Below are positions 5,014 to 15,642 of a stretch of 64,000 bases of DNA, one piece after another. The notes beneath the pieces are model-generated. The model was not told the DNA's origin and searched no databases. It worked only from the letters and a program-made list of their open reading frames with translations. Source of the stretch: Chloroflexota bacterium (GTDB lineage: Bacteria; Chloroflexota; Limnocylindria; QHBO01); contig JACDEL010000004.1 of assembly GCA_013816405.1 (NCBI GenBank), positions 3,475 to 67,474 on the forward strand, in the 5' to 3' direction. Position numbers and translations under genes: made by a program. The first letter of the stretch is position 1, and each line of letters starts with the position of its first letter.

Positions 5014-5062
5014 GCGGAAGATCACGTTGTCGTCGCGATTGGAGTTGAAGGGTGGGTGGAGG
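5014..5062 (-). repeat. Third partial copy (~50 bp, DPPF-motif core only) of the methyltransferase 5' segment; repeat copy D
   Basis: Minus strand reads ..HPPFNSNRDDNVIFRD.. and matches 88-130 of copy A. No start codon. Confidence 0.4.
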
Positions 5063-5150
5063 AGCGTAGCACGGGATTACAGGCGTGGGCGCACGTGACC
5101 ACCCGCGAGGGGAGCGGTACGGGTAAGGTCGTCATGACGATCGGGTACCG

Positions 5151-6566
5151 ATGAAGGAAGGCCAAACGTTCATGGCGGAAGGGCTCGCGGGACTCACACG
5201 CGAACACCTTAGTCGCCTGCGCGAGACGTTCCGCGGCGAGGTCAACACCCCCGGCGACAAGGGGTACGACGACGCGCGGCGCGTATGGAACGCGAAGTTC
5301 GACCGTCGACCGGCGATCCTCATCCGGCCGACCGGCGCCGGGGAGGTCGCGACCGCGATCCGCTTCGGGCGGGAGCACGGGCTCGAGATCGCCATCCGCG
5401 GTGGCGCACACAGCAACGTGGGGCATTCGACGACCGACGGCGGGCTGGTGATCGACCTGTCACGGTTCCGCGGCGTGACGGTCGACCCTGAGCGGCGGAT
5501 CGCCCTTGCTCGGGGTGGCGCATTGCTGGGCGAGCTCGATGTCGCAGCGCAGGCGCACGGCCTCGTCTGCCCGGTCGGCGTCATCGGTCATACCGGCGTC
5601 GGCGGGCTGACGCTGGGCGGCGGGATGGGCCGGCTTCAGCGGCGCTTCGGCCTGACCATCGACAACCTTCTCGCTGTCGAGCTCGTGACCGCGGACGGCC
5701 GCACCGTGCGCGCCAGCGAATCGGAGGAGCCCGAACTCTTCTGGGGGATGCGGGGTGCGGGCGCGAATTTCGGCGTGGTCACCAGCTTCGAGTTCGAGCT
5801 CCGCGAATTCGGCCCGCTGCTCCACCGTGGGGTGCGGATCTACCCCGCGTCCGCTCTCCAGGAGGTCTGGGCGATGGTGCGGGACTTCGCTGCGGTCGCC
5901 CCCGACGAGCTCACGGTCATCGTCAGCATCGGCCTTGCCCTGCCGGTGGAGGACTACCCCGAGTCGGTCGCCGGACAGCCGATCGTGATCGTCTCCTACA
6001 ACCACTGCGGCGACGCGGCCAGCGTCGAACGGGATGTCGCTCCGCTTCGTGCAGGACCCGAGCCGGTCTCGAGCTCAGACAGCAGCCAGGAGTACCTCGA
6101 GGTCCAGACTGCGAATGACCTGGCCATGGGATGGGGGAGCAGGTCCTACATCAAGGGCGGCTATGCGAACGACTTCCGCCCGGAGGCCCTCGATGCGCTC
6201 CTCGAGCACGCGGCCACGGGGTCTGCCGAGAGCGGGTTCGGGATCACCCTGCAGGGCGGCGCGATGGGGCGGGTGCCGGACGATGCCATGGCCTTCACCG
6301 GGCGCGACGCCCGGTTCGAGATGAGCGCCGCCTCCGATTGGGAGGATCCCGCTCTCGACGAGACGGAGCGCGACTGGGTCCGTCAGGCAATGGCGATCGT
6401 CGAGCCGGACGCCGTGGCGGGCCGCTATCTCAACGAGATCTCCGAGTCAGGGCCGGAGGAGACCCGGGCCATCTACGGGGATGGGAAGCTCGCCAGGCTC
6501 ACGGGGCTCAAGCGGGCCTGGGATCCCGACAACGTCTTCCGCCTGAACCACAACATCGCGCCGTAG
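5151..6566 (+). CDS. FAD-binding oxidoreductase (PCMH-type FAD domain + BBE/berberine-bridge C-terminal domain)
   Basis: 471 aa. GGAHSNVGHSTTDGGLVIDLS..GVGGLTLGGGMGRLQRRFGL.. plus C-terminal ..AWDPDNVFRLNHNIAP are hallmark BBE-like oxidase motifs. Confidence 0.8.
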   Translation: MKEGQTFMAEGLAGLTREHLSRLRETFRGEVNTPGDKGYDDARRVWNAKFDRRPAILIRPTGAGEVATAIRFGREHGLEIAIRGGAHSNVGHSTTDGGLVIDLSRFRGVTVDPERRIALARGGALLGELDVAAQAHGLVCPVGVIGHTGVGGLTLGGGMGRLQRRFGLTIDNLLAVELVTADGRTVRASESEEPELFWGMRGAGANFGVVTSFEFELREFGPLLHRGVRIYPASALQEVWAMVRDFAAVAPDELTVIVSIGLALPVEDYPESVAGQPIVIVSYNHCGDAASVERDVAPLRAGPEPVSSSDSSQEYLEVQTANDLAMGWGSRSYIKGGYANDFRPEALDALLEHAATGSAESGFGITLQGGAMGRVPDDAMAFTGRDARFEMSAASDWEDPALDETERDWVRQAMAIVEPDAVAGRYLNEISESGPEETRAIYGDGKLARLTGLKRAWDPDNVFRLNHNIAP

Positions 6567-6922
6567 GGTCGGGGCGCCGAACGGCCGGGTCGACATCGTC
6601 TACTACGACCGGACCCGCGACCCGATTGACGTGCTGAACTACGTCACCTACTCGCGCCTCGATCCGACGAGTGGGCTGGGAGTTACCGCCATGAGTGACG
6701 GTGCCTGGAGCCCCGCCTTCAATGGCAACGTCGACGGCGGCCAGCCGACGACGACGTGCACGTCGTTCATCGGCGACTACATCGGGCTGAGCTCCGACGA
6801 CACGCACGTCTCCCTGGGCTGGACCGGGAATGGGCCGAGCGTCCACCACGACGAGTTCGGCGATCCGACGGACTGCGACGTGAACCAGGACGTGCTGACG
6901 GTGGCAATCAGGCCCTAGCTTC

Positions 6923-7714
6923 TCAGTAGCCGGACCATCGCGGGCGCGCCTCGGCTGAAGGCTCGTCGGGATCAGGCAGCTGGTTCCTGACCATGGCGAC
7001 GAACGGACCCATTGCGCTGGCGAGCAGTGTCGCGTCTTCGGCAGTTGGCTGGCCGTCGTAAGCGCGGTGAGCAGCGTGGATCGCTTCGTGCCAGCGGTCA
7101 GGGAGGTGCTCGAGCGCCCACGCGCCCGCGGAGCGTTTGGAGATCACCACGTTGCCGCTCTCGACGGCATGCAGGATGCGGCTGCCATTCAGGATCGAAT
7201 AGGTGGCCTCGTACGGATCGTCGTCACCCTCGACGACATGCCGCTCCAGATGTTCGAGCTCCCGGCGGAGGTCGACTTCGAGCTCAGCCCAGGTGGGTGG
7301 TGGCACGATCTCGGCTGGCTCTCGCCCGTACAGCGGCACGTAGCGGCCGGCGAGCCAATGCGCCCGATGAATTGCCCAGGAGGTGTCACGCCGTTCAGCT
7401 TGGAAGGCGTGAGGCGGGCTCTCGGGTCGACGAGCATCGGCGGCCAGGACGTACCACGCATCCCACTCGACGCCCTGCTCACGGGCGATCAGGGCGTGGG
7501 CGTCTTCAATTCTCTGGGAAGTGCGTTGGTCGGGTGGCCGATCAACCACCGCGTAGGTATCAAGGTCTCCGGAGAGCGGTCGGTCGTGAGACGTGGTTCC
7601 GCCGTGCCCCCACAACGCGACCAGATTGTTGGCAAGGATCACCTGCAATTCGTCTCGGAGGCGAATCCAAGGGATCCGCGCTCTGTCCGGGATCTCGTCA
7701 AGAGGGACGCTCAC
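6923..7714 (-). CDS. Nucleotidyltransferase-domain protein of the AadA/ANT(3'')-ANT(9) type (NT domain + DUF4111)
   Basis: 263 aa from GTG 7712-7714, which overlaps the upstream stop (GTGA). LVALWGHGGTTSHDRPLSGDLDTYAVV is the NTase G-S...D.D motif. The C-terminal ..ILNGSRILHAVESG.. aligns with the AadA DUF4111 region. The 307-aa ORF version has a non-homologous N-terminal extension. Confidence 0.6.
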   Translation of the reverse strand: MSVPLDEIPDRARIPWIRLRDELQVILANNLVALWGHGGTTSHDRPLSGDLDTYAVVDRPPDQRTSQRIEDAHALIAREQGVEWDAWYVLAADARRPESPPHAFQAERRDTSWAIHRAHWLAGRYVPLYGREPAEIVPPPTWAELEVDLRRELEHLERHVVEGDDDPYEATYSILNGSRILHAVESGNVVISKRSAGAWALEHLPDRWHEAIHAAHRAYDGQPTAEDATLLASAMGPFVAMVRNQLPDPDEPSAEARPRWSGY

Positions 7715-8361
7715 CGGCCGTCCTTGGGGCTTGTGGGGAAGAGGAAAAGCCACGCCCCGACGACCAAGCCCCACAGGACCACCACGTAGAACGGCGCAGG
7801 CAGCCACTGGTTCGGTGACCATCCGGTGGCGACGAGGAATGCCCACGATGAGATGGCGGCCAGCCCCGTGAGCCCGGTGAAGGCGCGAACCCAGGTCGGG
7901 GCCGCAGTTCCGCCCTTCGCGAGGGTGATCAGCGAGATGCCGAGCAGCATGCCGCCGATCCCGAAGAAGACGACCATCCCGCCGCTGATCAGCGCGTAGC
8001 TGATCGCGGGATCAATGGCCGGGCCGCCGGCAAGCACCGAGGTCGGCACCGCGAGATAGAGGCCCCAACCGATCATGAACGAGCCGGCCGCGGCCAGGCT
8101 GGTGCCCCAGACGACTCTGCCTTGGCGGCCTGCACCGAGCCAGGTCTCCGACAGGTGGGCCATCAATACGATCAGTCCGATGGTCGAGATGACGACCAGG
8201 TAAACGGACACGATGAGCGCGGTTCGGCTCTGCGCCACGAACCTGGAGATCTCGGTGGCGGAGTAGTGCCCACCTTTTGGGCCGAAGAGCGTGAACCCGA
8301 CGATCAGGCACACGGCGAACAGGACCCCGCCTGCGCCAGCGCGCTGCCTGTCTCGGTTCAC
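7711..8361 (-). CDS. Integral membrane protein (paralog of 8372-9025)
   Basis: Multi-TM ORF. Start is uncertain: GTG 8361 or ATG 8424. Its stop overlaps the start of the nucleotidyltransferase gene. Confidence 0.45.
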   Translation of the reverse strand: MNRDRQRAGAGGVLFAVCLIVGFTLFGPKGGHYSATEISRFVAQSRTALIVSVYLVVISTIGLIVLMAHLSETWLGAGRQGRVVWGTSLAAAGSFMIGWGLYLAVPTSVLAGGPAIDPAISYALISGGMVVFFGIGGMLLGISLITLAKGGTAAPTWVRAFTGLTGLAAISSWAFLVATGWSPNQWLPAPFYVVVLWGLVVGAWLFLFPTSPKDGR

Positions 8362-8371
8362 CAGTCGCCGT

Positions 8372-9025
8372 TCAAGTGGGAGGGGCCGTCCCGTCCATGT
8401 CCCCAGGGTCCCGCCATAGGGCATACCCCCAGGCCAGGAGGCCAGCGCCAACCAGGACACCCAGAGATGTCTGGCCGATCTGCTGCAGGCCCGGCGCGAG
8501 GAAAAGGACCGCCGGTACCGCAACCACCGCGACCGGCACCAGCAAGATCAGGACCCAGGAGCCGATCGACGGAAGAATGCCCGCGCGCAGCGTGGCGATT
8601 GCCAACAGCAGCAGGCCGATGAACCCGGCCAGGATCAGGCCCCCCACGAACTTGAGGGACAAAGCCGTGAAAAAGGGTCCATTCAGTACGAGCAGCTGCG
8701 GGGCACCCTGCGCGATGACCGGCTGCAGGACGCCGCCCCCGATCATCAGCGTGCCAGCGGTCAAAGCCGCGCCCGCCACCGCCATGACGAATCCGACGAA
8801 GCCAAGCCGTCCAATGCGCTCTCCCTGGCGCGCGTAAAGGCCGATTAGACCGAACAGAATCAGCAGCCATGCGAAGGCGCCCAGCCAGTGCGCGAGACCC
8901 CACACCGGCTCGAGGACGTACTTCGCCGTCTCGCCGGGCGGATGGAGGATGAGTTCCACCGCCAGGCCAATCCCGCCGAGCATCATGGAGAGCCCGCTCC
9001 AGCGGATCAGCCTTCGGGTGGACAT
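8372..9025 (-). CDS. Integral membrane protein (DUF4386-like)
   Basis: 217 aa from MSTRRLIRWSGL (ATG 9023-9025), highly hydrophobic. The longer 294-aa ORF upstream extension is not supported. Confidence 0.5.
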   Translation of the reverse strand: MSTRRLIRWSGLSMMLGGIGLAVELILHPPGETAKYVLEPVWGLAHWLGAFAWLLILFGLIGLYARQGERIGRLGFVGFVMAVAGAALTAGTLMIGGGVLQPVIAQGAPQLLVLNGPFFTALSLKFVGGLILAGFIGLLLLAIATLRAGILPSIGSWVLILLVPVAVVAVPAVLFLAPGLQQIGQTSLGVLVGAGLLAWGYALWRDPGDMDGTAPPT

Positions 9026-9069
9026 GTCCGGAAGCGTACGCCTCGGCTGCACTGCCCGATAACGCGGGA

Positions 9070-10015
9070 GAAGCAGGCAGCGCCCCCGGCCCATTCGGGG
9101 TGTACTCGCGGACAGGTCCGTCGATCGGCTTGAAGGTGAGCCGCGTGGGCCGTTCTTGGTGCCACTCAAGGCTGCCCTTCGTGCCGGACACGCGGATGTG
9201 GAGACCGTTCTCCACCCCAGCCGCCGTCTGCGTGACCCAGAAGCTCCCGCGCGCACCGTTGTCGAAGCGCAGCATGGCGGCGCCGTAATCGTCGACAGGC
9301 CGTTCCGGGATCACGTGGCCGATCTCGGCGGCGACCTCCGCGACTTCGAGGCGACTGACGAACCGCACCAGGTTGTGCGCGTGCGTTCCGATGTCGCCCA
9401 TCACCAGGGACGGTCCGCCTCGCACGGGGTTGTAGCGCCACGGCAACCCGCCGGCTGGGTCCGGGTCGGACTCATCGGCCTTGTTTCCCTGCACGTATTC
9501 GACCTGGACCAGCCTGATCTCGCCGACCTGCCCATCCTCGACCAGCGCGCGAGCCTGGCGCACCATGGGGTAGCCCGTATAGATGTGCGTGAGGCAGAAG
9601 ACCAGCCCCGTGGCATCGACCTTGCGGACGATGTCCAGGGCCTCGTCAAGCGTGTTCGTCATCGGCTTGTCGCAGACGACGTCGAAGCCCCGATCCAGAG
9701 CCGCCAGGGCATACCGATGGTGGCTGTCGTTCGGGGTCATGATCGCGACGACCTCGGCACCGTCCTCGCGGTCGCTCTCGGTATCGAGCTTCACATTGGC
9801 ATCGGAATAGGCGCGTGAGGGATCGATCCCCATGCCGATGGCAGCCTTCTCGGATCGCTCGGGATCCGACGAGACCACCCCTCCCACGAGCTGATAGCGA
9901 CCGTCGAGCCGTGCGGCCGTCGGTGCATCGCACCGATGAAGCTGCCCGGGCCACCGCCGATGACCGCCAGCCGAAGCGGGCGTCCAAGCATCTCAATGAT
10001 CGGCTCAGCGTCCAC
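9070..10015 (-). pseudogene. Gfo/Idh/MocA family oxidoreductase, frameshifted near 9895 (-1 in a G/C run); C-terminus unclear
   Basis: Rossmann N-terminus RLAVIGGGPGSFIGAMHR is in ORF 9791-10015. The rest (..VVAIMTPNDSHHRYALAALDRGFDVVCDKPM..GEIRLVQVEY..) is in ORF 8358-9887. That ORF then runs on stop-free across the next gene, which is a GC artefact. Confidence 0.5.
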
Positions 10016-10064
10016 GGAGGGCTAGCCTAGCATCGAGGTCCCGGAGCGAGGTCTTTCAGGACAC

Positions 10065-10346
10065 TCACGAACGGATGACCAGCTCGAGCGTGACGGTGTC
10101 GCCCAGCGCGAGTCCTTCGGCAGTGCGGACGACGTCCTTGATGGGCACGACGTAGCCGCCGTCCTTGGGAAACAGCGAGGTTTCCCAAACGCTTCGGCCG
10201 ATCCGGGCTCTGACCGGGATCATGCCCCAGCCATAGCTCACCATCGGCGACACGGCGCGCAGCTCGAGACCAACCGCCTTCGGCACCGTGATGAAGTGAA
10301 ACGGCGCAGGGCCCCTCCAGTACCACAGCTCGCCGATGAACTCCAT
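10065..10346 (-). CDS. DUF1905 family protein
   Basis: MEFIGELWYW..FHFITVPKAV..SLFPKDGGYVVPIKDVVRTAEGLALGDTVTLEL matches the DUF1905 pattern. Start at the second Met. Confidence 0.6.
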   Translation of the reverse strand: MEFIGELWYWRGPAPFHFITVPKAVGLELRAVSPMVSYGWGMIPVRARIGRSVWETSLFPKDGGYVVPIKDVVRTAEGLALGDTVTLELVIRS

Positions 10347-10487
10347 GGGCACGATCCCCGGATCCATCACCAGAAACTACTCGACCAGAAGCCGAATGAT
10401 GTGCGGCGGCTCAATCCGCGTACTAGCTAGGTGCAGGGCTGCCGTGAAGTGCGCTCCTGCCTCATGGCCACCTACTAGGAGTACACA

Positions 10488-11726
10488 ATGCGTTACTGGA
10501 AGCCGGCAGCCACTGCGCTCGCCGTCGTACTTATGCTCGCCGCGTGCTCGGCCGCGCCCGGCACCAGCACCTCGCCCAGCTCCGAACCGAGCATGGCGGG
10601 GAACAGCATGTCGCCGAGCCACAGTCCGGGCACAGGCGAAATCGAGTCAGCCGCGGCCACACTCCGCACTGACCTGAACTATCTTCTGGGCGAGCACCTC
10701 ATCCTCGCGGCCAAGGCGACTGGTGCGGCCCTTGGTGGTCGTGCAGATCAGTTCGCCGCCTACGCCGCGCTCTTGAACACGAATGGCACCGATCTGGGTG
10801 CCGCGATTGGCAGCATCTATGGCCAGGCCGCCCAGGACGAATGGAATCGGATCTGGAGCGCCCACAACGGGTTCTTCGTCGACTACACCAACGGGGTGGC
10901 GACCAAGGACCAGGCGGCCATGGACCTCGCCGTCAAGAACCTGACCACGGTCTATGTCCCGCAGTTCGCGGAGTTCCTGGCCGGTGCCACCGATCTGCCC
11001 ACTGAGGCGATCACGAACCTGGTCACGCAGCACGTCCTTCAGACCAAGGCGGTGGTGGATGCCCAGGCCGCAGGCGAGTGGGACGCCGCCTACGCGGCCA
11101 TCCGCGAGGCATACGCCCACATGCAGATGATCGGCGACGCGCTTGCCCCGGCAATCGCATCGAAGAATGGGATCGATGGTGACGCTGGCACCGCAGGTGT
11201 CGACTTCCGCGTCGCCCTGAACCAGTTCCTCCAGGAGCACCTGTTCCTGGCCTCCTTCGCGACCGATGCCGCACTTGCAGGAAGAGCCGATGAGTTTGCG
11301 GCAGCTGGGGCTGTGCTGAACACGAACGGCACCGATCTGGGTGCCGCCATTGGCAGCATCTATGGCCAGGCCGCCCAGGACGAATGGAATCGGATCTGGA
11401 GCGCCCACAACGGGTTCTTCGTCGACTACACCAACGGGGTGGCGACCAAGGACCAGGCGGCCATGGACCTCGCCGTCAAGAACCTGACCACGGTCTATGT
11501 CCCGCAGTTCGCGGAGTTCCTGGCCGGTGCCACCGATCTGCCGCAGAACGTTCTGGAGAAGTTGATCTCCGAGCACGTGCTGACCACCAAGGCGATCGTC
11601 GACGCGCAGGGAGCGGGCGACGTGATGGGGGCCGCCACGGCGGATCGCGAGGCTGCGCAGCACATGCGCATGATCGGCGACCCGCTTGCAGTAGCCATCG
11701 TCGGGAAGGTCCCCGACAAGTTCTAG
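10488..11726 (+). CDS. Secreted lipoprotein with two near-identical ~180-aa helical repeats (function unknown)
   Basis: Signal peptide plus lipobox (LAACSAAPG). Residues ~95-270 and ~275-410 are repeated. At nucleotide level 10770-11000 and 11310-11540 are nearly identical. AGGAG RBS. Confidence 0.7.
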   Translation: MRYWKPAATALAVVLMLAACSAAPGTSTSPSSEPSMAGNSMSPSHSPGTGEIESAAATLRTDLNYLLGEHLILAAKATGAALGGRADQFAAYAALLNTNGTDLGAAIGSIYGQAAQDEWNRIWSAHNGFFVDYTNGVATKDQAAMDLAVKNLTTVYVPQFAEFLAGATDLPTEAITNLVTQHVLQTKAVVDAQAAGEWDAAYAAIREAYAHMQMIGDALAPAIASKNGIDGDAGTAGVDFRVALNQFLQEHLFLASFATDAALAGRADEFAAAGAVLNTNGTDLGAAIGSIYGQAAQDEWNRIWSAHNGFFVDYTNGVATKDQAAMDLAVKNLTTVYVPQFAEFLAGATDLPQNVLEKLISEHVLTTKAIVDAQGAGDVMGAATADREAAQHMRMIGDPLAVAIVGKVPDKF

Positions 11727-11787
11727 CCCGTCCATCCGGGGAGCGGTCCGGTCATCCGGGCCGCTCCTCTCCTTTTGATAGCACGAG

Positions 11788-12195
11788 GTGGCATTCATGG
11801 CCCAGCTGAGAATCCTTTCGGTCTTCCTGCTCGCGCTTGGCGCTCTGTTGGGCGCATGCAGCTCCCCTGCCGGCGAGTCGTTCGCCGGCGCACCAAGCAT
11901 CAAAGCCGTGGAACCGGTGGCGATCCACGTGGCCGACTTCATGCTCGATAACCCAGACCTGAGCGTTACCGGTCCGACCGTCACGTTCATGGTCACCAAT
12001 GACGGCCCTACCCCGCACAATGTGGCGGTCCGCAACGCCGAAGGCGTCGTGCTGATGACCACTCGGGACCTCTCCCTCGGAGAGTCTCAGACGATCAGCG
12101 CGCAGTTCGCGCCTGGCGACTACATCACCTTCTGCTCGCTTCCCGGGCACGAGAGCCTTGGCGTCAAGGGCAGGTTGAGCGTGATCGCGCCTTAG
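11788..12195 (+). CDS. Cupredoxin-like (type-1 copper) lipoprotein
   Basis: 135 aa with lipobox LLGACSSP. PTPHNVAV...FCSLPGHESLGVKG gives the His...Cys-x-x-Gly-His arrangement of blue-copper sites. Confidence 0.6.
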   Translation: MAFMAQLRILSVFLLALGALLGACSSPAGESFAGAPSIKAVEPVAIHVADFMLDNPDLSVTGPTVTFMVTNDGPTPHNVAVRNAEGVVLMTTRDLSLGESQTISAQFAPGDYITFCSLPGHESLGVKGRLSVIAP

Positions 12196-12284
12196 CTGCG
12201 ACCTGGCCGACCATCGGCTCCGGCAGGGCGAGGCCATGCCCATTCACACGGCCGTCATGCGCTGGTGGTACCGTCGCGGCCGCC

Positions 12285-12989
12285 ATGGCCACCGTGCTCG
12301 TCGTCGATGATGACCCCAGTATCCGTGACCTCCTGCGCCTGTACGTGACCCGTGACGGTCACCGCGTGGTGTTCGCCACCGACGGCGCGCAGGCACTGGT
12401 GGCTGCCCACCAACACGTGCCCGACCTGGTTCTGCTCGACGTGATGCTGCCGGGAATCGACGGCCTGGAGGTCTGCCGGCAGCTCCGCGAGAATAGTGAT
12501 GTCCCAATCATGCTGTTGACCGCACGCAGCGGCGACTCGGACAAGGTGGTTGGCCTGGACCTGGGCGCCGACGATTACGTCGTGAAGCCGTTCAGCCCAC
12601 GCGAGCTGATGGCGCGCATCCGTGCCCAGCTGCGCCGGCGCACGAGTGCCGCCCTCGATGACCCGGTGCTGACCTCGATCGGGCTGATGGTCGACCCAAG
12701 CGCAATGGAGGTGCAGGTCAATGGCAGGCCGGTCGAGATCACCTCGACCGAATTTCGGATCCTGCATGCCCTCATGCGGCGAGCCGGCCGCGTCTTCACG
12801 CGAGACGAGCTGATCAGCGCGTCTTATGTCGACGACCCCGGCATCCTCGATCGGACGATCGATGTTCACGTCGGGCGACTGCGGCGCAAGCTGGGCGACA
12901 GCTCGGCGAGCCCGCGCTACGTGGCCACCGTTCGGGGCGTCGGCTACAAGTTCGTGTCCGCGGTCGAAGCGCGGGCGAGTGAGGGCTGA
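12285..12989 (+). CDS. OmpR/PhoB-family response regulator
   Basis: Receiver domain (VLVVDDDPSIRDLL..DLVLLDVMLPGIDG) plus winged-helix C-terminus (..RVFTRDELI..VDVHVGRLRRKL..). Confidence 0.85.
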   Translation: MATVLVVDDDPSIRDLLRLYVTRDGHRVVFATDGAQALVAAHQHVPDLVLLDVMLPGIDGLEVCRQLRENSDVPIMLLTARSGDSDKVVGLDLGADDYVVKPFSPRELMARIRAQLRRRTSAALDDPVLTSIGLMVDPSAMEVQVNGRPVEITSTEFRILHALMRRAGRVFTRDELISASYVDDPGILDRTIDVHVGRLRRKLGDSSASPRYVATVRGVGYKFVSAVEARASEG

Positions 12990-12992
12990 CCG

Positions 12993-14126
12993 ATGTCAAC
13001 GCTGAGTGCGCGGCTGATGGGCCTGTTCCTGCTCCTGTCCTTGCTCGTCGCCGGGGTGATCGTTCTCGCGGTCGTCCAGTTCAGCGCCGAGCAGGTGATG
13101 CACCTCCTGATGCAGGGCGTCGGCACGCCGGAGCAGGCGCGGGCCATGTTCGATCAATACGTGGTGCGCGTCATGCTGATCGGAGCGGCCGCGGGCGTGG
13201 TGCTCGGGAGCTTGGCCGCCTGGTGGCTGGTGCGACGCCTGATGCGACCGCTCCAACTGCTGACCGAGGCGTCGCAGTCGATCGCCGTTGGTGACCTGGC
13301 GGCGCGCGTGCCGGAACCGGCAGATTCGGAGCTGCGCCGGCTCGCCCAGTCGTTCAACCGCATGGCTGGCGCACTGCAACGCACCGAGCAGCTGCGGCGG
13401 GCCCTGGTCGAAGACGTGGCCCATGAGCTGCGGACGCCGCTGACCAGTCTGCGCGGCTACACCGAGGCGCTTGCCGACGGGGTCATCGCGCCGACGCCGG
13501 AGATGCTGCACACGGTGCACGAGGAGATCGAGCGACTGACGCGACTGGTCGAGGCACTCGACCAGTTGGCGCGCGGTGAGCGGGACGAGCGCTCACCCGA
13601 GCAGGGCGACGTCGATCTCGCCTTGATTGTGCGCCGCACGATCAAGCTGGCATCGCCGGAGCTCACTCGGCGTCAGATTGAGATCGAGGTCGTGGAGCCC
13701 CCTGCCCTGCCCCCTGTGCAGGGCGACGCGGACGCCATCGGCCAGGTTGTGGCGAACCTGGTCCAGAACGCCGAGCGCTACACCGATGATGGGGGCCGCA
13801 TGACGGTCCGCCTCGCCGCCGGTGCCGAATCGCTGCGCTGCGCCGTCGAGAACACAGGTGACGGGATCCCACCCGATGAGCTTGAGCTCATCTGGGAGCG
13901 CCTCCACCGCGTCGATCGCTCACGAGCCCGCGCCAGCGGCGGCGCGGGCATCGGCCTCGCCATCGTCCGCCAGATCGTTGACGCCCACGGAGGACAGGTG
14001 GGCGCCTCCTCGGCCGACGGGCGGACCGAGATCTGGTTCAGGCTTCCGATCGCGAATCGCGCGAGTAAGGCACCGGTTCAGCAAGCCGTCACAAGCGCGT
14101 CATCACCTCGACACATGCGCGGCTGA
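12993..14126 (+). CDS. Sensor histidine kinase (TM, HAMP, HisKA, HATPase_c)
   Basis: N-terminal TM helices, H-box AHELRTPLTSLRGYTE, and G-boxes ..DGGRMTV.. and GGAGIGLAIVRQIV. Confidence 0.85.
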   Translation: MSTLSARLMGLFLLLSLLVAGVIVLAVVQFSAEQVMHLLMQGVGTPEQARAMFDQYVVRVMLIGAAAGVVLGSLAAWWLVRRLMRPLQLLTEASQSIAVGDLAARVPEPADSELRRLAQSFNRMAGALQRTEQLRRALVEDVAHELRTPLTSLRGYTEALADGVIAPTPEMLHTVHEEIERLTRLVEALDQLARGERDERSPEQGDVDLALIVRRTIKLASPELTRRQIEIEVVEPPALPPVQGDADAIGQVVANLVQNAERYTDDGGRMTVRLAAGAESLRCAVENTGDGIPPDELELIWERLHRVDRSRARASGGAGIGLAIVRQIVDAHGGQVGASSADGRTEIWFRLPIANRASKAPVQQAVTSASSPRHMRG

Positions 14127-14176
14127 CCCTGACGGAGACGGCCGGAGAAGCCGGTCCGCGAACCCGAGGATGAACC

Positions 14177-14566
14177 ATGCGACGAGTCTTGCTGATGCTG
14201 TCGGTCATCGCGGCGATGAGCCTGGTGCTGGCCGCACCGGTCGGCGCCAAATCATTCGGCACGATCTACGCTGAGGGTGACGCCTACCGCACCTTCGGCA
14301 CACCTGCACACGTCGAAGCTGGCACAGGCACCGATCCAATCATCGCCTTCAGCAACTTCGACCAGGGTGGCGTGGCCAAGTACGCGCCCGGACAGGGCTC
14401 GCACGGCGGGCGCTGGATGGTCTGGGTGGCGACCTGGGTGGTTCCGGGAGACGCCTACCTGCTCACCGACTATGACGACGTGATCGCGCTGGTCGATGCT
14501 CGCGAGATCACTCTGCAACGAATGCCCGGCGCGGACTTCCGCTGCCCGATTCTGCCGAACGCTTAG
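14177..14566 (+). CDS. Secreted hypothetical protein (signal peptide)
   Basis: 129 aa. N-terminal MRRVLLMLSVIAAMSLVLAAPVGA. GAGGATGAACC RBS region. Lies downstream of the two-component pair. Confidence 0.5.
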   Translation: MRRVLLMLSVIAAMSLVLAAPVGAKSFGTIYAEGDAYRTFGTPAHVEAGTGTDPIIAFSNFDQGGVAKYAPGQGSHGGRWMVWVATWVVPGDAYLLTDYDDVIALVDAREITLQRMPGADFRCPILPNA

Positions 14567-14584
14567 ACATCCGAGATCGGGCGC

Positions 14585-14615
14585 CGCCGGTCCGCAGGGG
14601 CCGGCGGTGTCGTTT
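14585..14615 (+). terminator. Candidate intrinsic terminator (CCGCCGG-10 nt loop-CCGGCGG then U-rich TGTCGTTTA)
   Basis: Inverted repeat 20 bp after the stop of 14177-14566, followed by a T-rich tract. Confidence 0.3.
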
Positions 14616-14880
14616 ACCCGACCCGGCCGTCGGTTCGATATCGGACACGTCGGGGTGGGCGCCGGAGCCTCCGGGCAGAGCACCGGCGGGCACACAAGCG
14701 GGTCGCCCACGGCAGGTCAGGCTGAAGCCATTCTCGCGGTGCAGCAATCTGTCGCTGCTTGACCACCCACCCCGGCTCGCGCCGAGGCCCCCGCGCCCTC
14801 TCGCTGCGGGCGACCGGCGCTCTCCACCGCGGTGCCACCCCGGACGTTTCCCGGCATGCAGCTCATCAACGAGGAGGATT

Positions 14881-15040
14881 CATGACCGAGCGCGAACCAA
14901 TCCACAGCGCGGCGGCTCCGTCCACCGCCAGGCCCGCGGCGCGAAAGCTGGTGGATCGCCGCCGCGCGATGTCCCTGATGGTCAGCGGGATGGCAGCTCT
15001 GTCGGCCATCGTGCCTCTCATGGTCCTCAAGCCCGGCTGA
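14881..15040 (+). CDS. Small hypothetical protein (53 aa)
   Basis: Good RBS (GAGGAGG then ATG at 14881). MTEREPIHS.. with a hydrophobic C-terminal segment. The longer ORF 14759-15040 lacks RBS support. Confidence 0.3.
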
Positions 15041-15201
15041 CCTGACCTAGGAAATCCATTGACCCGCTGGCCCCCGGCGAGCATGATGCCGGCGTGAAGG
15101 TCGACCGGCAGAGCCGGACGGTTTGCGATGCGGCGTTGCGTGCGCTGAATCGGCGGAAGATTGGCCCGGTGTACTAACTCGGCACGCGAACGGGGTGAGA
15201 C

Positions 15202-15642
15202 ATGATCCATGCCGATGCCAACACAACCATTCGGCGACCCATCGCCGATGTCTTTAACTATGTGACCGATCCGACCAACGAGCCCGCCTGGCACACCGAC
15301 GCGGCCGAGGCGCGGCCGCTCATTACCGGCCCGATCGGGGTGGGAAGCCGGATCGCCTATGTCTTTCCGTTCATGGGTCGGCGCTCGACGTCGATCGGCG
15401 AGGTCGTCGCGTTCGAGCCGCCGCACCTCGAAGCGATCCAGTTCGATAGCGGGCCATTTGGCCTCAAGCCGAGGATCACCTACCGCTTCGAGGATCTCGG
15501 CGGGTCTGTCCGCTTCACCCGCCAGGCTGAGGCAGAAACGCGGGGCCTCATCCGCGTGATCGCGCCAATCATGCAGCGGCTACTGGTCCGCCGGAGTGCC
15601 TTGTTTGTCGAGAACCTTCGACGGCAGCTCGAGGGAGCCTGA
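15202..15642 (+). CDS. SRPBCC-superfamily (polyketide cyclase/START-like) protein
   Basis: 146 aa. ..IRRPIADVFNYVTDPTNEPAWH.. is the typical SRPBCC N-terminal pattern. Confidence 0.6.
   Translation: MIHADANTTIRRPIADVFNYVTDPTNEPAWHTDAAEARPLITGPIGVGSRIAYVFPFMGRRSTSIGEVVAFEPPHLEAIQFDSGPFGLKPRITYRFEDLGGSVRFTRQAEAETRGLIRVIAPIMQRLLVRRSALFVENLRRQLEGA

Follow-up and report, generated by a model that had tools for sequence, protein, structure and literature searches.

The 64,000-nt stretch of DNA analysed here, hereafter the window, comes from a soil Chloroflexota metagenome-assembled genome (MAG) of the Limnocylindria, and the five genes studied, g1 to g5, lie within about 4 kb of it. All five were found as open reading frames (ORFs) on the + strand: g1 (10488-11726) encodes a repeat lipoprotein of 412 aa, g2 (11788-12195) a type-1 cupredoxin lipoprotein of 135 aa, g3 (12285-12989) an OmpR/PhoB-family response regulator of 234 aa, g4 (12993-14126) a histidine kinase of 377 aa, and g5 (14177-14566) a secreted protein of 129 aa. 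The gaps between them are, in order, 61, 89, 3 and 50 nt. The G+C content of the window is 64-72%, and close relatives of g1 carry the label Candidatus Limnocylindria. An earlier sequence-only reading had proposed that the five genes form one envelope copper/redox-sensing module resembling CopRS and CusRS loci. Its inventory of five co-directional, tightly spaced genes was right, as was its envelope location, since all five products are predicted to lie in or outside the membrane; its starting point, 10420, falls within the g1 promoter region and not in the gene, whose coding sequence begins at 10488. We find that the cluster consists of two modules, g1-g2 and g3-g4-g5, and we hold this two-part architecture to be very likely.

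What is the evidence that the five genes do not belong together? A scan for g1 relatives, restricted to one genome per species, gave 79 loci in the Limnocylindria and Dormibacteria. In 70 of these g2 follows g1, and in five of the remaining nine the contig ends just after g1. An orthologous regulator and kinase adjoin g1-g2 in only one of the 79 (L010), where they are placed divergently upstream and where the kinase, 60% identical to g4, has the same outer loop; g5 is present at none. A scan of metagenomes for the kinase gave 38 loci with an orthologous kinase, 14 of them with 2 kb or more of sequence 5' of the regulator gene, and neither g1 nor g2 is found at any of the 38. One of the 14 is L082, where the kinase is 90% identical to g4, and some loci with a 90% identical kinase have 4 kb of upstream DNA and still no g1 or g2. 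By comparison, g5 comes directly after the kinase in 18 of the 38; all 18 are among the 19 loci that combine a kinase identity of at least 70% with downstream DNA. The adjacency of g1 and g2 at 70 of 79 loci, and the lack of both genes at all 38 kinase loci, indicate that the cluster is a local juxtaposition of two independently conserved modules. By the criterion that the earlier reading set for itself, the proposal of a single CopRS/CusRS-like sensing module is refuted, because the five genes are not co-conserved.

The first gene of the first module encodes a protein with a signal peptide that ends in a lipobox, MLAAC, of which Cys20 is invariant among 25 homologues; g2 has a corresponding lipobox, LLGAC, and a signal peptide ending in a lipobox Cys is the mark of a bacterial lipoprotein for both. 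A public record identical to g1 (H0W81_01570; 372 aa; 100% identity) begins at Met41, and so is without the signal peptide and lipobox encoded by 10488-10607. The 412-aa form is favoured by the conservation of its full length in homologues and by the sequence AGGAG six bases 5' of the ATG at 10488. After Cys20 comes a Met-rich tether, residues 21-52, and then two helical repeats, at residues 53-229 (10644-11174) and 234-410 (11187-11717). The 181-aa repeats are 74% identical in protein sequence and are visible in the DNA as a direct repeat at 543-nt spacing. The central 75 residues are identical in the two, and the corresponding 225 nt, 10773-10997 for residues 96-170 and 11316-11540 for residues 277-351, are 98.7% identical. 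Over the whole repeat unit nucleotide identity is about 77%, and the differences, synonymous ones included, are dense in the flanks. Near identity of the central segment between flanks diverged even at synonymous positions points to gene conversion within g1. Since several g1 homologues also have identical central segments in both repeats, intragenic gene conversion seems to recur across lineages.

The AlphaFold2 model of g1 is all-helical, with 12 helices, six per repeat (mean predicted local distance difference test score, pLDDT, 85.9; predicted TM-score, pTM, 0.82), and the protein is rich in alanine. The description of g1 as two near-identical helical repeats therefore stands, as to the 74% identity, the identical central segment and the all-helical model. 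In 100 two-repeat representatives the conserved polar residues are Arg60, Glu69, His70, Asn99, Trp123, His126, Tyr133, Asp141, His182 and Asp191, and the pair His211-Met212 is conserved at about 70-75%. Three of these, His70, His126 and His182, together with their repeat-2 equivalents His251, His307 and His363, are conserved at 84-94%, with Gln the main substitute. Within each repeat the conserved histidines are exactly 56 residues apart, and a profile alignment of the three helical hairpins of a repeat keeps them in register (L..LL.EH, F..lW..H and v..ll..H). Helical wheels place five of the six close to the hydrophobic face of the helix, within 10-40 degrees of it; the sixth, His251, has a weak hydrophobic moment in the calculation. 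Met makes up 7.5% of the tether that links the lipid anchor to the first bundle, as against 0.9% of the g2 tether in the same genomes, and the g1 tether contains motifs such as ESMAPESM, MMSHDPSM and SMDHSMDP, similar to the Met/His-rich stretches with which copper-resistance proteins bind Cu(I).

Does g1 have relatives of known function? Its family is a large one: a profile search of 1.84 billion representatives (E <= 0.001) gave 1,778 clusters at 50% identity. The two-repeat form is dominant, accounting for 103 of the 150 best representatives, and five have four repeats. Scans of g1 against Pfam and NCBIfam gave no match, phmmer and two profile searches against the sequences of the PDB gave no real match, and 45 diverse family members scanned against Pfam showed no consistent family for the helical part. 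Four names that surfaced as possible relatives, DUF6478, DUF2150, DUF6415 and SMBP, were set aside because the matches are weak, below threshold and inconsistent across members; a relationship to the Ferritin_2 proteins encoded beside the Caldilineaceae fusion was also rejected. With Foldseek structure searches added to those of Pfam, NCBIfam and PDB sequences, the earlier remark that the repeat lipoprotein has no nameable family is confirmed. Some family members are fused to surface or wall domains: SLH in Halobacillus litoralis, Cu_amine_oxidN1 in Aureibacillus halotolerans, and LysM and sortase domains. Such anchoring domains fit a location outside the membrane in single-membrane bacteria. 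In the Actinomycetota a caspase domain is joined to a family member.

The partner of g1, g2, has the motif His77 ... Cys116-S-L-P-G-His121, with the ligand codons at 12016-12018, 12133-12135 and 12148-12150. Pfam Copper-bind (PF00127) scores 21.3 bits against a cut-off of 21.2, a marginal pass, and Cupredoxin_1 (PF13473) scores 24.6 bits, under its cut-off of 27; one or both models are precomputed on most of the 120 listed g2 homologues. When the window protein is aligned with 53 orthologues of related loci, His77, Asn78, Cys116 and His121 prove invariant in all 54 sequences. The C-terminal copper loop, ligands included, aligns with those of auracyanin B and the blue copper protein 6kol. The blue-copper-like identity that had been read from the sequence is accordingly upheld in its His, Cys and His ligands. 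The axial ligand is another matter: the usual Met is absent, and Val126 (12163-12165) occupies the position. Among the 54 sequences the axial residue is Met in 23, Ile in 23, Val in six, Thr in one and Leu in one. Fungal laccases, for example, have type-1 sites that lack an axial Met, and so Val126 makes g2 a variant of the type-1 class and does not exclude it. By its sequence g2 is a variant type-1 cupredoxin with an intact His/Cys/His site that lacks the axial Met. It is well established for cupredoxins that a noncoordinating axial residue gives a three-coordinate site with a higher reduction potential, and Val126 should accordingly raise the potential of g2. Among NCBIfam models g2 matches the EfeO cupredoxin domain best (E 6.9e-7), far under the family cut-off; BLASTP against E. 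coli EfeO gives E 2e-4. The CopI model NF051440 matches at E 2.2e-4, with 21 bits against a cut-off of 280. A literature search that combined Limnocylindria with cupredoxin found no paper.

The bond between g1 and g2 goes beyond adjacency. Five proteins (P0242, P0245, P0249, P0257 and P0260) join helical repeats to a C-terminal cupredoxin in one polypeptide, and in a sixth, P0266, the cupredoxin is N-terminal to the helical repeats. P0242, from the Caldilineaceae, has four repeats and a cupredoxin, and its length of 954 aa is the same in two independent MAG records. The copper loops vary among the fusions (CSLPGHESLGL, CSVPGHRAAGM and CAIHESM), which argues for several independent fusion events. 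A cupredoxin gene also follows P0525, a remote relative of g1. Adjacency and fusions together show that g1 and g2 are functionally coupled.

Several observations concern the neighbours of the pair. In the Caldilineaceae locus L119, positions 5025-12553 carry in order genes for an extracytoplasmic function (ECF) sigma factor, an RskA-type anti-sigma factor, a Ferritin_2 protein, the fusion, a second Ferritin_2 protein and a sortase, and this cluster adjoins a nitrous-oxide reductase (nosZ/nosD) locus. A secreted or membrane-anchored protein of 200-290 aa often follows g2, as in L040 (8763-9419) and seven other loci; the protein of the L040 type has a mature end that begins Cys-Ser-Cys (...AVACSCVPP...) and no Pfam match. 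A multi-pass membrane kinase of the HisKA_3 type is encoded one to three genes downstream of g1-g2 in L005, L020, L031, L033 and L077. With this subset included, g1-g2 adjoins three kinds of envelope signalling genes, depending on the lineage.

How might g1-g2 be controlled? The sequence TGATGT-N16-CGTA (10397-10422; -35 TGATxx, -10 CGTA) lies 66 nt 5' of the g1 ATG. The pattern TGAT-N18-CGTA has a single match in the window, the one 5' of g1. The 79 g1 loci, 1.74 Mb in all, hold 38 matches, of which 28 are directly upstream of g1, three are directly upstream of ECF sigma genes that adjoin the pair (L056, L059 and L060), and three more are beside other genes of those same clusters. Such a motif upstream of an ECF sigma gene is the usual mark of an autoregulated ECF sigma factor, and one mark of membership in an ECF regulon, an ECF-class promoter (-35 TGAxxC, spacer of about 16 nt, -10 CGTA) shared with the sigma gene, is found for g1. 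Promoters of the ECF class have a -35 element tgaAAC and a -10 element CGTA or CGTC (PMC5758882), features that the pattern before g1 fits. A scan for sigma-70 promoters found no site 5' of any of the five genes. We conclude that g1-g2 has a predicted ECF-type promoter from which it would be transcribed.

The sigma factors themselves are found beside the pair in some relatives. An ECF sigma gene and an RskA_C anti-sigma partner adjoin g1-g2 in L004, L006, L054, L056, L059 and L060, and such neighbours of the pair or the fusion span Limnocylindria, Dormibacteria and Caldilineaceae (L119). The promoter motif of the Limnocylindria was not found in the Caldilineaceae locus by motif search. In an isolate of another phylum, the Bacillota Aureibacillus halotolerans, a sigma/anti-sigma pair is directly upstream of a g1-family gene, and TGATCCA-N16-CGAAT stands about 40 nt before the start codon of that gene. 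The RskA-regulated groups ECF18 and ECF19 have been linked to redox sensing (PMC7826278). The Aureibacillus locus (L123, 3311-6653) consists of the ECF sigma gene, the RskA-type anti-sigma gene and the g1-family gene with its Cu_amine_oxidN1 tail, and a second Cu_amine_oxidN1 protein is encoded nearby (8342-9934). The Dormibacteria loci L054 (4228-4827), L056 and L059 encode, beside the sigma/anti-sigma pair and g1, a membrane protein with a Met-rich N-terminus (MNMPGMQGMQGMDHGG...) and a weak DUF7475 match; the Met-rich neighbour is a hint of copper.

The g1 message has structure at both ends. The 5' untranslated region (10429-10487) includes a stem-loop region at 10429-10475 and the Shine-Dalgarno sequence AGGAG at 10477-10481. 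A 5' stem of 6-8 bp, whose sequence differs and covaries, is present in most of about 18 orthologous g1 leaders that were folded, with no Rfam match, and is consistent with a stabiliser of the 5' end of the transcript. A GC-rich hairpin of 14 bp (11738-11769), followed by TCCTTTT, comes immediately after the g1 stop. Its folding energy is -30.9 kcal/mol in the window and averages -31.9 across 51 orthologous loci; random 110-nt windows drawn from these loci average -20.1 +/- 3.9 kcal/mol, and 2% of them reach -28. The position and strength of this hairpin are conserved and its sequence is not. It may be a partial terminator, or an mRNA stabiliser, that sets the ratio of g1 to g2. The stems at the two ends suggest that the g1 message is stabilised and abundant and that less of the transcription reads through into g2. 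An Rfam scan of 9900-15300 gave no credible match.

The second module begins with g3. Its Pfam matches are Response_reg (4.7e-32) and Trans_reg_C (3e-26), and it reaches no NCBIfam equivalog cut-off: TIGR01387 (cztR_silR_copR) scores 174.1 against a cut-off of 279.2, and PhoB, MtrA and other models outscore TIGR01387, none at its own cut-off. The kinase g4 has two transmembrane segments, an outer loop of 26 residues (FSAEQVMHLLMQGVGTPEQARAMFDQY), and HAMP, HisKA and HATPase_c domains. The loop is well conserved in 28 orthologues and includes conserved Met and His residues. Scores are 214.9 for TIGR01386 (cztS_silS_copS; cut-off 292.55) and 137.4 for PRK09835 (cut-off 423). With so short an outer loop the kinase probably senses within the membrane or through a partner. 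Might that partner be g5? We infer that it is a candidate. The protein begins with a signal peptide that has an AxA cleavage site; Pfam, NCBIfam and the PDB yielded no match to it, and its AlphaFold2 model, at pLDDT 56.7, is unreliable and of too low a quality to serve in a fold search. Its conservation within the Limnocylindria is high: there are 635 homologues, and identity is 72% or more for the top 120.

The control elements of this module are of a different kind. Upstream of g3 lie TTCAC-N6-GTCAT (12243-12258) and a -10-like TACCGT (12269-12274), in a promoter region of 12243-12274. Because TACCGT ends 10 nt 5' of the g3 ATG and there is no Shine-Dalgarno sequence, the g3 mRNA would be nearly leaderless. 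This stretch is conserved in most of the 20 metagenome loci examined, and beyond it on the 5' side the DNA differs. Inside the 3' end of g4, 5' of g5, are four pentamers at 11-bp spacing (TTCAG, GTCAC, GTCAT and GACAC; 14077-14114), a predicted regulator site that is recognisable 5' of g5 in most of 18 loci examined. Sites of this kind, direct repeats with a period of 11 bp, are what OmpR/PhoB-family regulators typically bind. The pattern GTCAY-N6-GTCAY has its sole exact match in the window at this array, and no match in L010. The relaxed pattern KTCAY-N6-KTCAY has two sites in the window, one before g3 and one before g5, and from this the predicted regulon of the two-component system is the system itself plus g5, and not g1-g2. 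The g5 leader also has a small hairpin (GGCCGGAGAAGCCGG; 14137-14160), and GGCCGG-N4-GCCGGCC or a one-base variant is present at all 18 g5 loci. The two modules thus have distinct cis elements, an ECF-type promoter for one and regulator-type repeats for the other.

What might the two modules do? The explanation that we think best is that g1-g2 and g3-g5 are independent units that are neighbours by chance in this genome, the first a copper/redox pair and the second an autoregulated sensor; taken whole, we give it an even chance. In the first unit an ECF-sigma promoter would drive g1-g2, and the hairpin after g1 probably makes g1 more abundant than g2. Both proteins would be lipid-anchored on the outer face of the cytoplasmic membrane, the single membrane of these bacteria. 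There g2 would act as a type-1 blue copper electron-transfer protein with g1 as its dedicated partner. In the proposed structure g1 has a flexible Met-rich tether and two six-helix bundles, in each of which three hairpins would offer one core-facing His apiece. Copper is the likeliest metal for g1, in view of the Met-rich tether, the buried and equivalently placed histidines, and the recurrent fusion to cupredoxins: Cu(I) might be captured by the tether and held at the His sites, and the two proteins together might oxidise or otherwise handle copper, or transfer electrons, on the outer side of the membrane. This copper-handling mechanism is tentative, and we rate it somewhat short of even. The trigger would be envelope or redox stress, conveyed by an ECF sigma factor and an RskA-type anti-sigma factor encoded elsewhere in the genome. 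The second unit would be an autoregulated OmpR-type system with g5 as its conserved output and possibly its co-sensor.

A number of observations weigh against this explanation. No homologue of a cognate ECF sigma or anti-sigma factor was found in the window by tblastn. A motif scan of the window gave no signature of a P-type ATPase, multicopper oxidase, Ftr1 or c-type cytochrome, and no copper exporter, multicopper oxidase or chaperone was found there. The similarity of g1 to any known metal-binding family is below detection, and the hairpin-to-hairpin profile alignments are statistically weak (E 0.003-0.01). Many g1-family members, such as those of Halobacillus and Aureibacillus and P0329, are without a cupredoxin, so that the helical domain has a role independent of g2; the genomic contexts of the Halobacillus member and of P0329 gave no functional clue. 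As to the separateness of the modules, an orthologous two-component system does adjoin g1-g2, in a different arrangement, in L010, and some cross-talk between the modules is possible. In addition, no terminator was found between g2 and g3, which leaves room for read-through from the g1 promoter into g3.

A bolder version of the copper/redox pair can be framed for the g1 family as a whole. It may be an unrecognised extracytoplasmic metalloprotein fold, the effector of an RskA-type ECF pathway, to which a high-potential cupredoxin was recruited in the Chloroflexota. The fold may be a six-helix bundle in which each of three hairpins gives one His to a buried metal site, the bundle having undergone tandem duplication. 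We consider this unlikely. If it were true, the pair would be a new two-protein copper oxidase or detoxifying redox system, a functional counterpart of the multicopper oxidases on an unrelated scaffold, and the ECF sigma/RskA-type pathway would be widespread in single-membrane bacteria of at least two phyla.

One might think instead that g1 is mainly a signalling protein, an extracytoplasmic sensor of a ligand or metal that acts on the RskA-type anti-sigma factor and is induced by the same pathway, with g2 a lineage-specific addition. There are precedents in CnrX, which acts on CnrY and CnrH, and in CpxP, which acts on CpxA. The sigma and RskA_C genes are directly beside g1-family genes in four lineages of two phyla, one of them without a cupredoxin, g1 and the sigma gene share a promoter motif, and g1 has helical hairpins with conserved His, Glu and Met. 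However, at the majority of g1-g2 loci there is no sigma gene within 7 kb, and g1 has no match to the CnrX, CpxP or LTXXQ families. A sensor would be made in matching amounts, whereas the hairpin after g1 suggests that the product is abundant; an effector also fits better with the recurrent fusion of the family to cupredoxins and to domains that anchor in the wall (SLH, LysM, Cu_amine_oxidN1 and sortase). A primary sensing role for g1 is for these reasons doubtful.

Could the original single-operon proposal nevertheless be saved, with g3 and g4 sensing copper, perhaps through g1 and g2, and controlling g1-g2 and g5? Co-direction, tight spacing and the lack of a detected terminator after g2 suit it, as do the 60% identical kinase, with the same loop, and its regulator placed divergently beside g1-g2 in L010 and the conserved Met and His of the kinase loop. 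Set against these are the 38 kinase loci without g1 or g2, among them loci where the kinase is 90% identical and the upstream DNA extends for 4 kb. Moreover, no regulator-type repeat lies 5' of g1 in the window, none was found in L010, the ECF-type promoter of g1 is common to loci that lack the two-component system, and kinase and regulator both score under the NCBIfam heavy-metal cut-offs. We therefore regard a single copper-sensing operon as highly unlikely.

Another alternative, to which we assign a slightly smaller probability again, is that g1 is an abundant structural protein of the envelope that binds no metal and whose histidines serve folding or packing. The family fusions to SLH, LysM, Cu_amine_oxidN1 and sortase would suit such a protein, as would its alanine-rich, highly helical character and the 5' and 3' hairpins that bracket the transcript and suggest high expression. 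Yet three equivalently placed, core-facing histidines per bundle, with Gln as main substitute, are atypical of pure packing, and a structural role does not account for the tight and recurrent pairing and fusion with redox-active cupredoxins. Least probable of all is an iron pair like a split EfeO, in which the cupredoxin would oxidise Fe(II) and the helical protein bind Fe(III): the EfeO matches of g2, the build of EfeO itself (a cupredoxin and an all-helical M75 domain, with M75-only forms; PMC9174327) and the Ferritin_2 genes that flank the Caldilineaceae fusion speak for it, but Peptidase_M75 matches none of 45 g1-family members, hhalign of g1 with E. coli EfeO gives a probability of 1%, the Foldseek PDB matches of g1 include no imelysin or EfeO structure, g1 has no GxHxxE motif, no EfeU/Ftr1 permease or EfeB is nearby, the window has no REGLE motif, and the Met-rich tether points to Cu(I) and not to iron.

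It is useful to return to the copper/redox pair and ask which known systems it resembles. With the auracyanin, plastocyanin and azurin group (PF00127), g2 shares the His ... Cys-x4-His set and the Asn after the first His, and, as with the auracyanins, this blue copper protein is tethered to the membrane and belongs to a member of the Chloroflexota. It departs from the group in its axial residue, Val in place of Met (Met in 23 orthologues; Ile, Val, Leu or Thr in 31), and in the sequence HESLG after the second His, which is specific to the g2 family. Unlike the auracyanins, g2 also has an obligate helical partner gene, which to our knowledge is not a feature of any of them. The EfeO and EfeM proteins of EfeUOB systems likewise have a cupredoxin joined to or paired with a two-lobed, all-helical extramembrane protein, in fused and split forms (PMC9174327, PMC3143127); however, g1 is not homologous to M75/imelysin, EfeU and EfeB are not neighbours, and g2 keeps the full type-1 Cys/His site. 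CopI, a periplasmic protein of copper tolerance in Rubrivivax gelatinosus, also combines an extracytoplasmic cupredoxin with disordered, His/Met-rich, copper-capturing segments (PMC13308877), although in our case the Met-rich segment sits on the partner g1 and not on the cupredoxin. By analogy g1-g2 would work most like EfeO or CopI, yet g1 fails every test of membership in either group.

The regulatory likenesses are also partial. As in CnrYXH and SigK-RskA, relatives of the pair have an ECF sigma factor and a membrane anti-sigma factor (RskA_C) encoded beside a helical extracytoplasmic protein, with a shared ECF-type promoter; the window differs in having no sigma/anti-sigma genes, and g1 is unrelated in sequence to CnrX. 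For the second module, an OmpR-family g3, a HAMP-HisKA g4 and high cztR_silR_copR and cztS_silS_copS scores recall CusRS and CopRS. Here g4 differs in its 26-residue loop, with no periplasmic metal-sensor domain, and the conserved partner is g5 and not a copper efflux or oxidase gene; the other neighbours vary, and none are copper genes. Sub-threshold scores, the missing sensor domain and the absence of copper neighbours together place g3 and g4 outside the CusRS/CopRS group.

The genes that flank the cluster encode DUF1905, SRPBCC, methyltransferase, SDR and HAD proteins and are unrelated. Upstream, on the - strand, a Gfo/Idh/MocA oxidoreductase gene (8358-10015) appears disrupted. Its first 30 or so Rossmann-fold positions are in a separate frame (9791-10015), and past about residue 250 the long ORF is out of frame, over a membrane-protein ORF at 8372-9256. 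The gene is either a pseudogene or the product of an assembly error.

What does the finding mean for these bacteria? The Limnocylindria and Dormibacteria are abundant, uncultured soil bacteria whose envelope biology is essentially unknown. In g1-g2 they have an extramembrane cupredoxin-partner module whose scaffold is a helical domain not yet characterised and which is linked to an ECF sigma pathway. A cautionary point is that a neat, co-directional cluster of five genes proved to be two unrelated regulons. The natural variation at the axial position of g2 orthologues, among Met, Ile and Val, provides a series for the study of how reduction potential is tuned. For the large, family-less g1 domain, the cupredoxin adjacency and fusions and the ECF link give a testable handle, and one that extends to the output of RskA-type ECF systems outside the mycobacteria. 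The family member in the cultured Aureibacillus halotolerans offers a tractable organism for the pathway.

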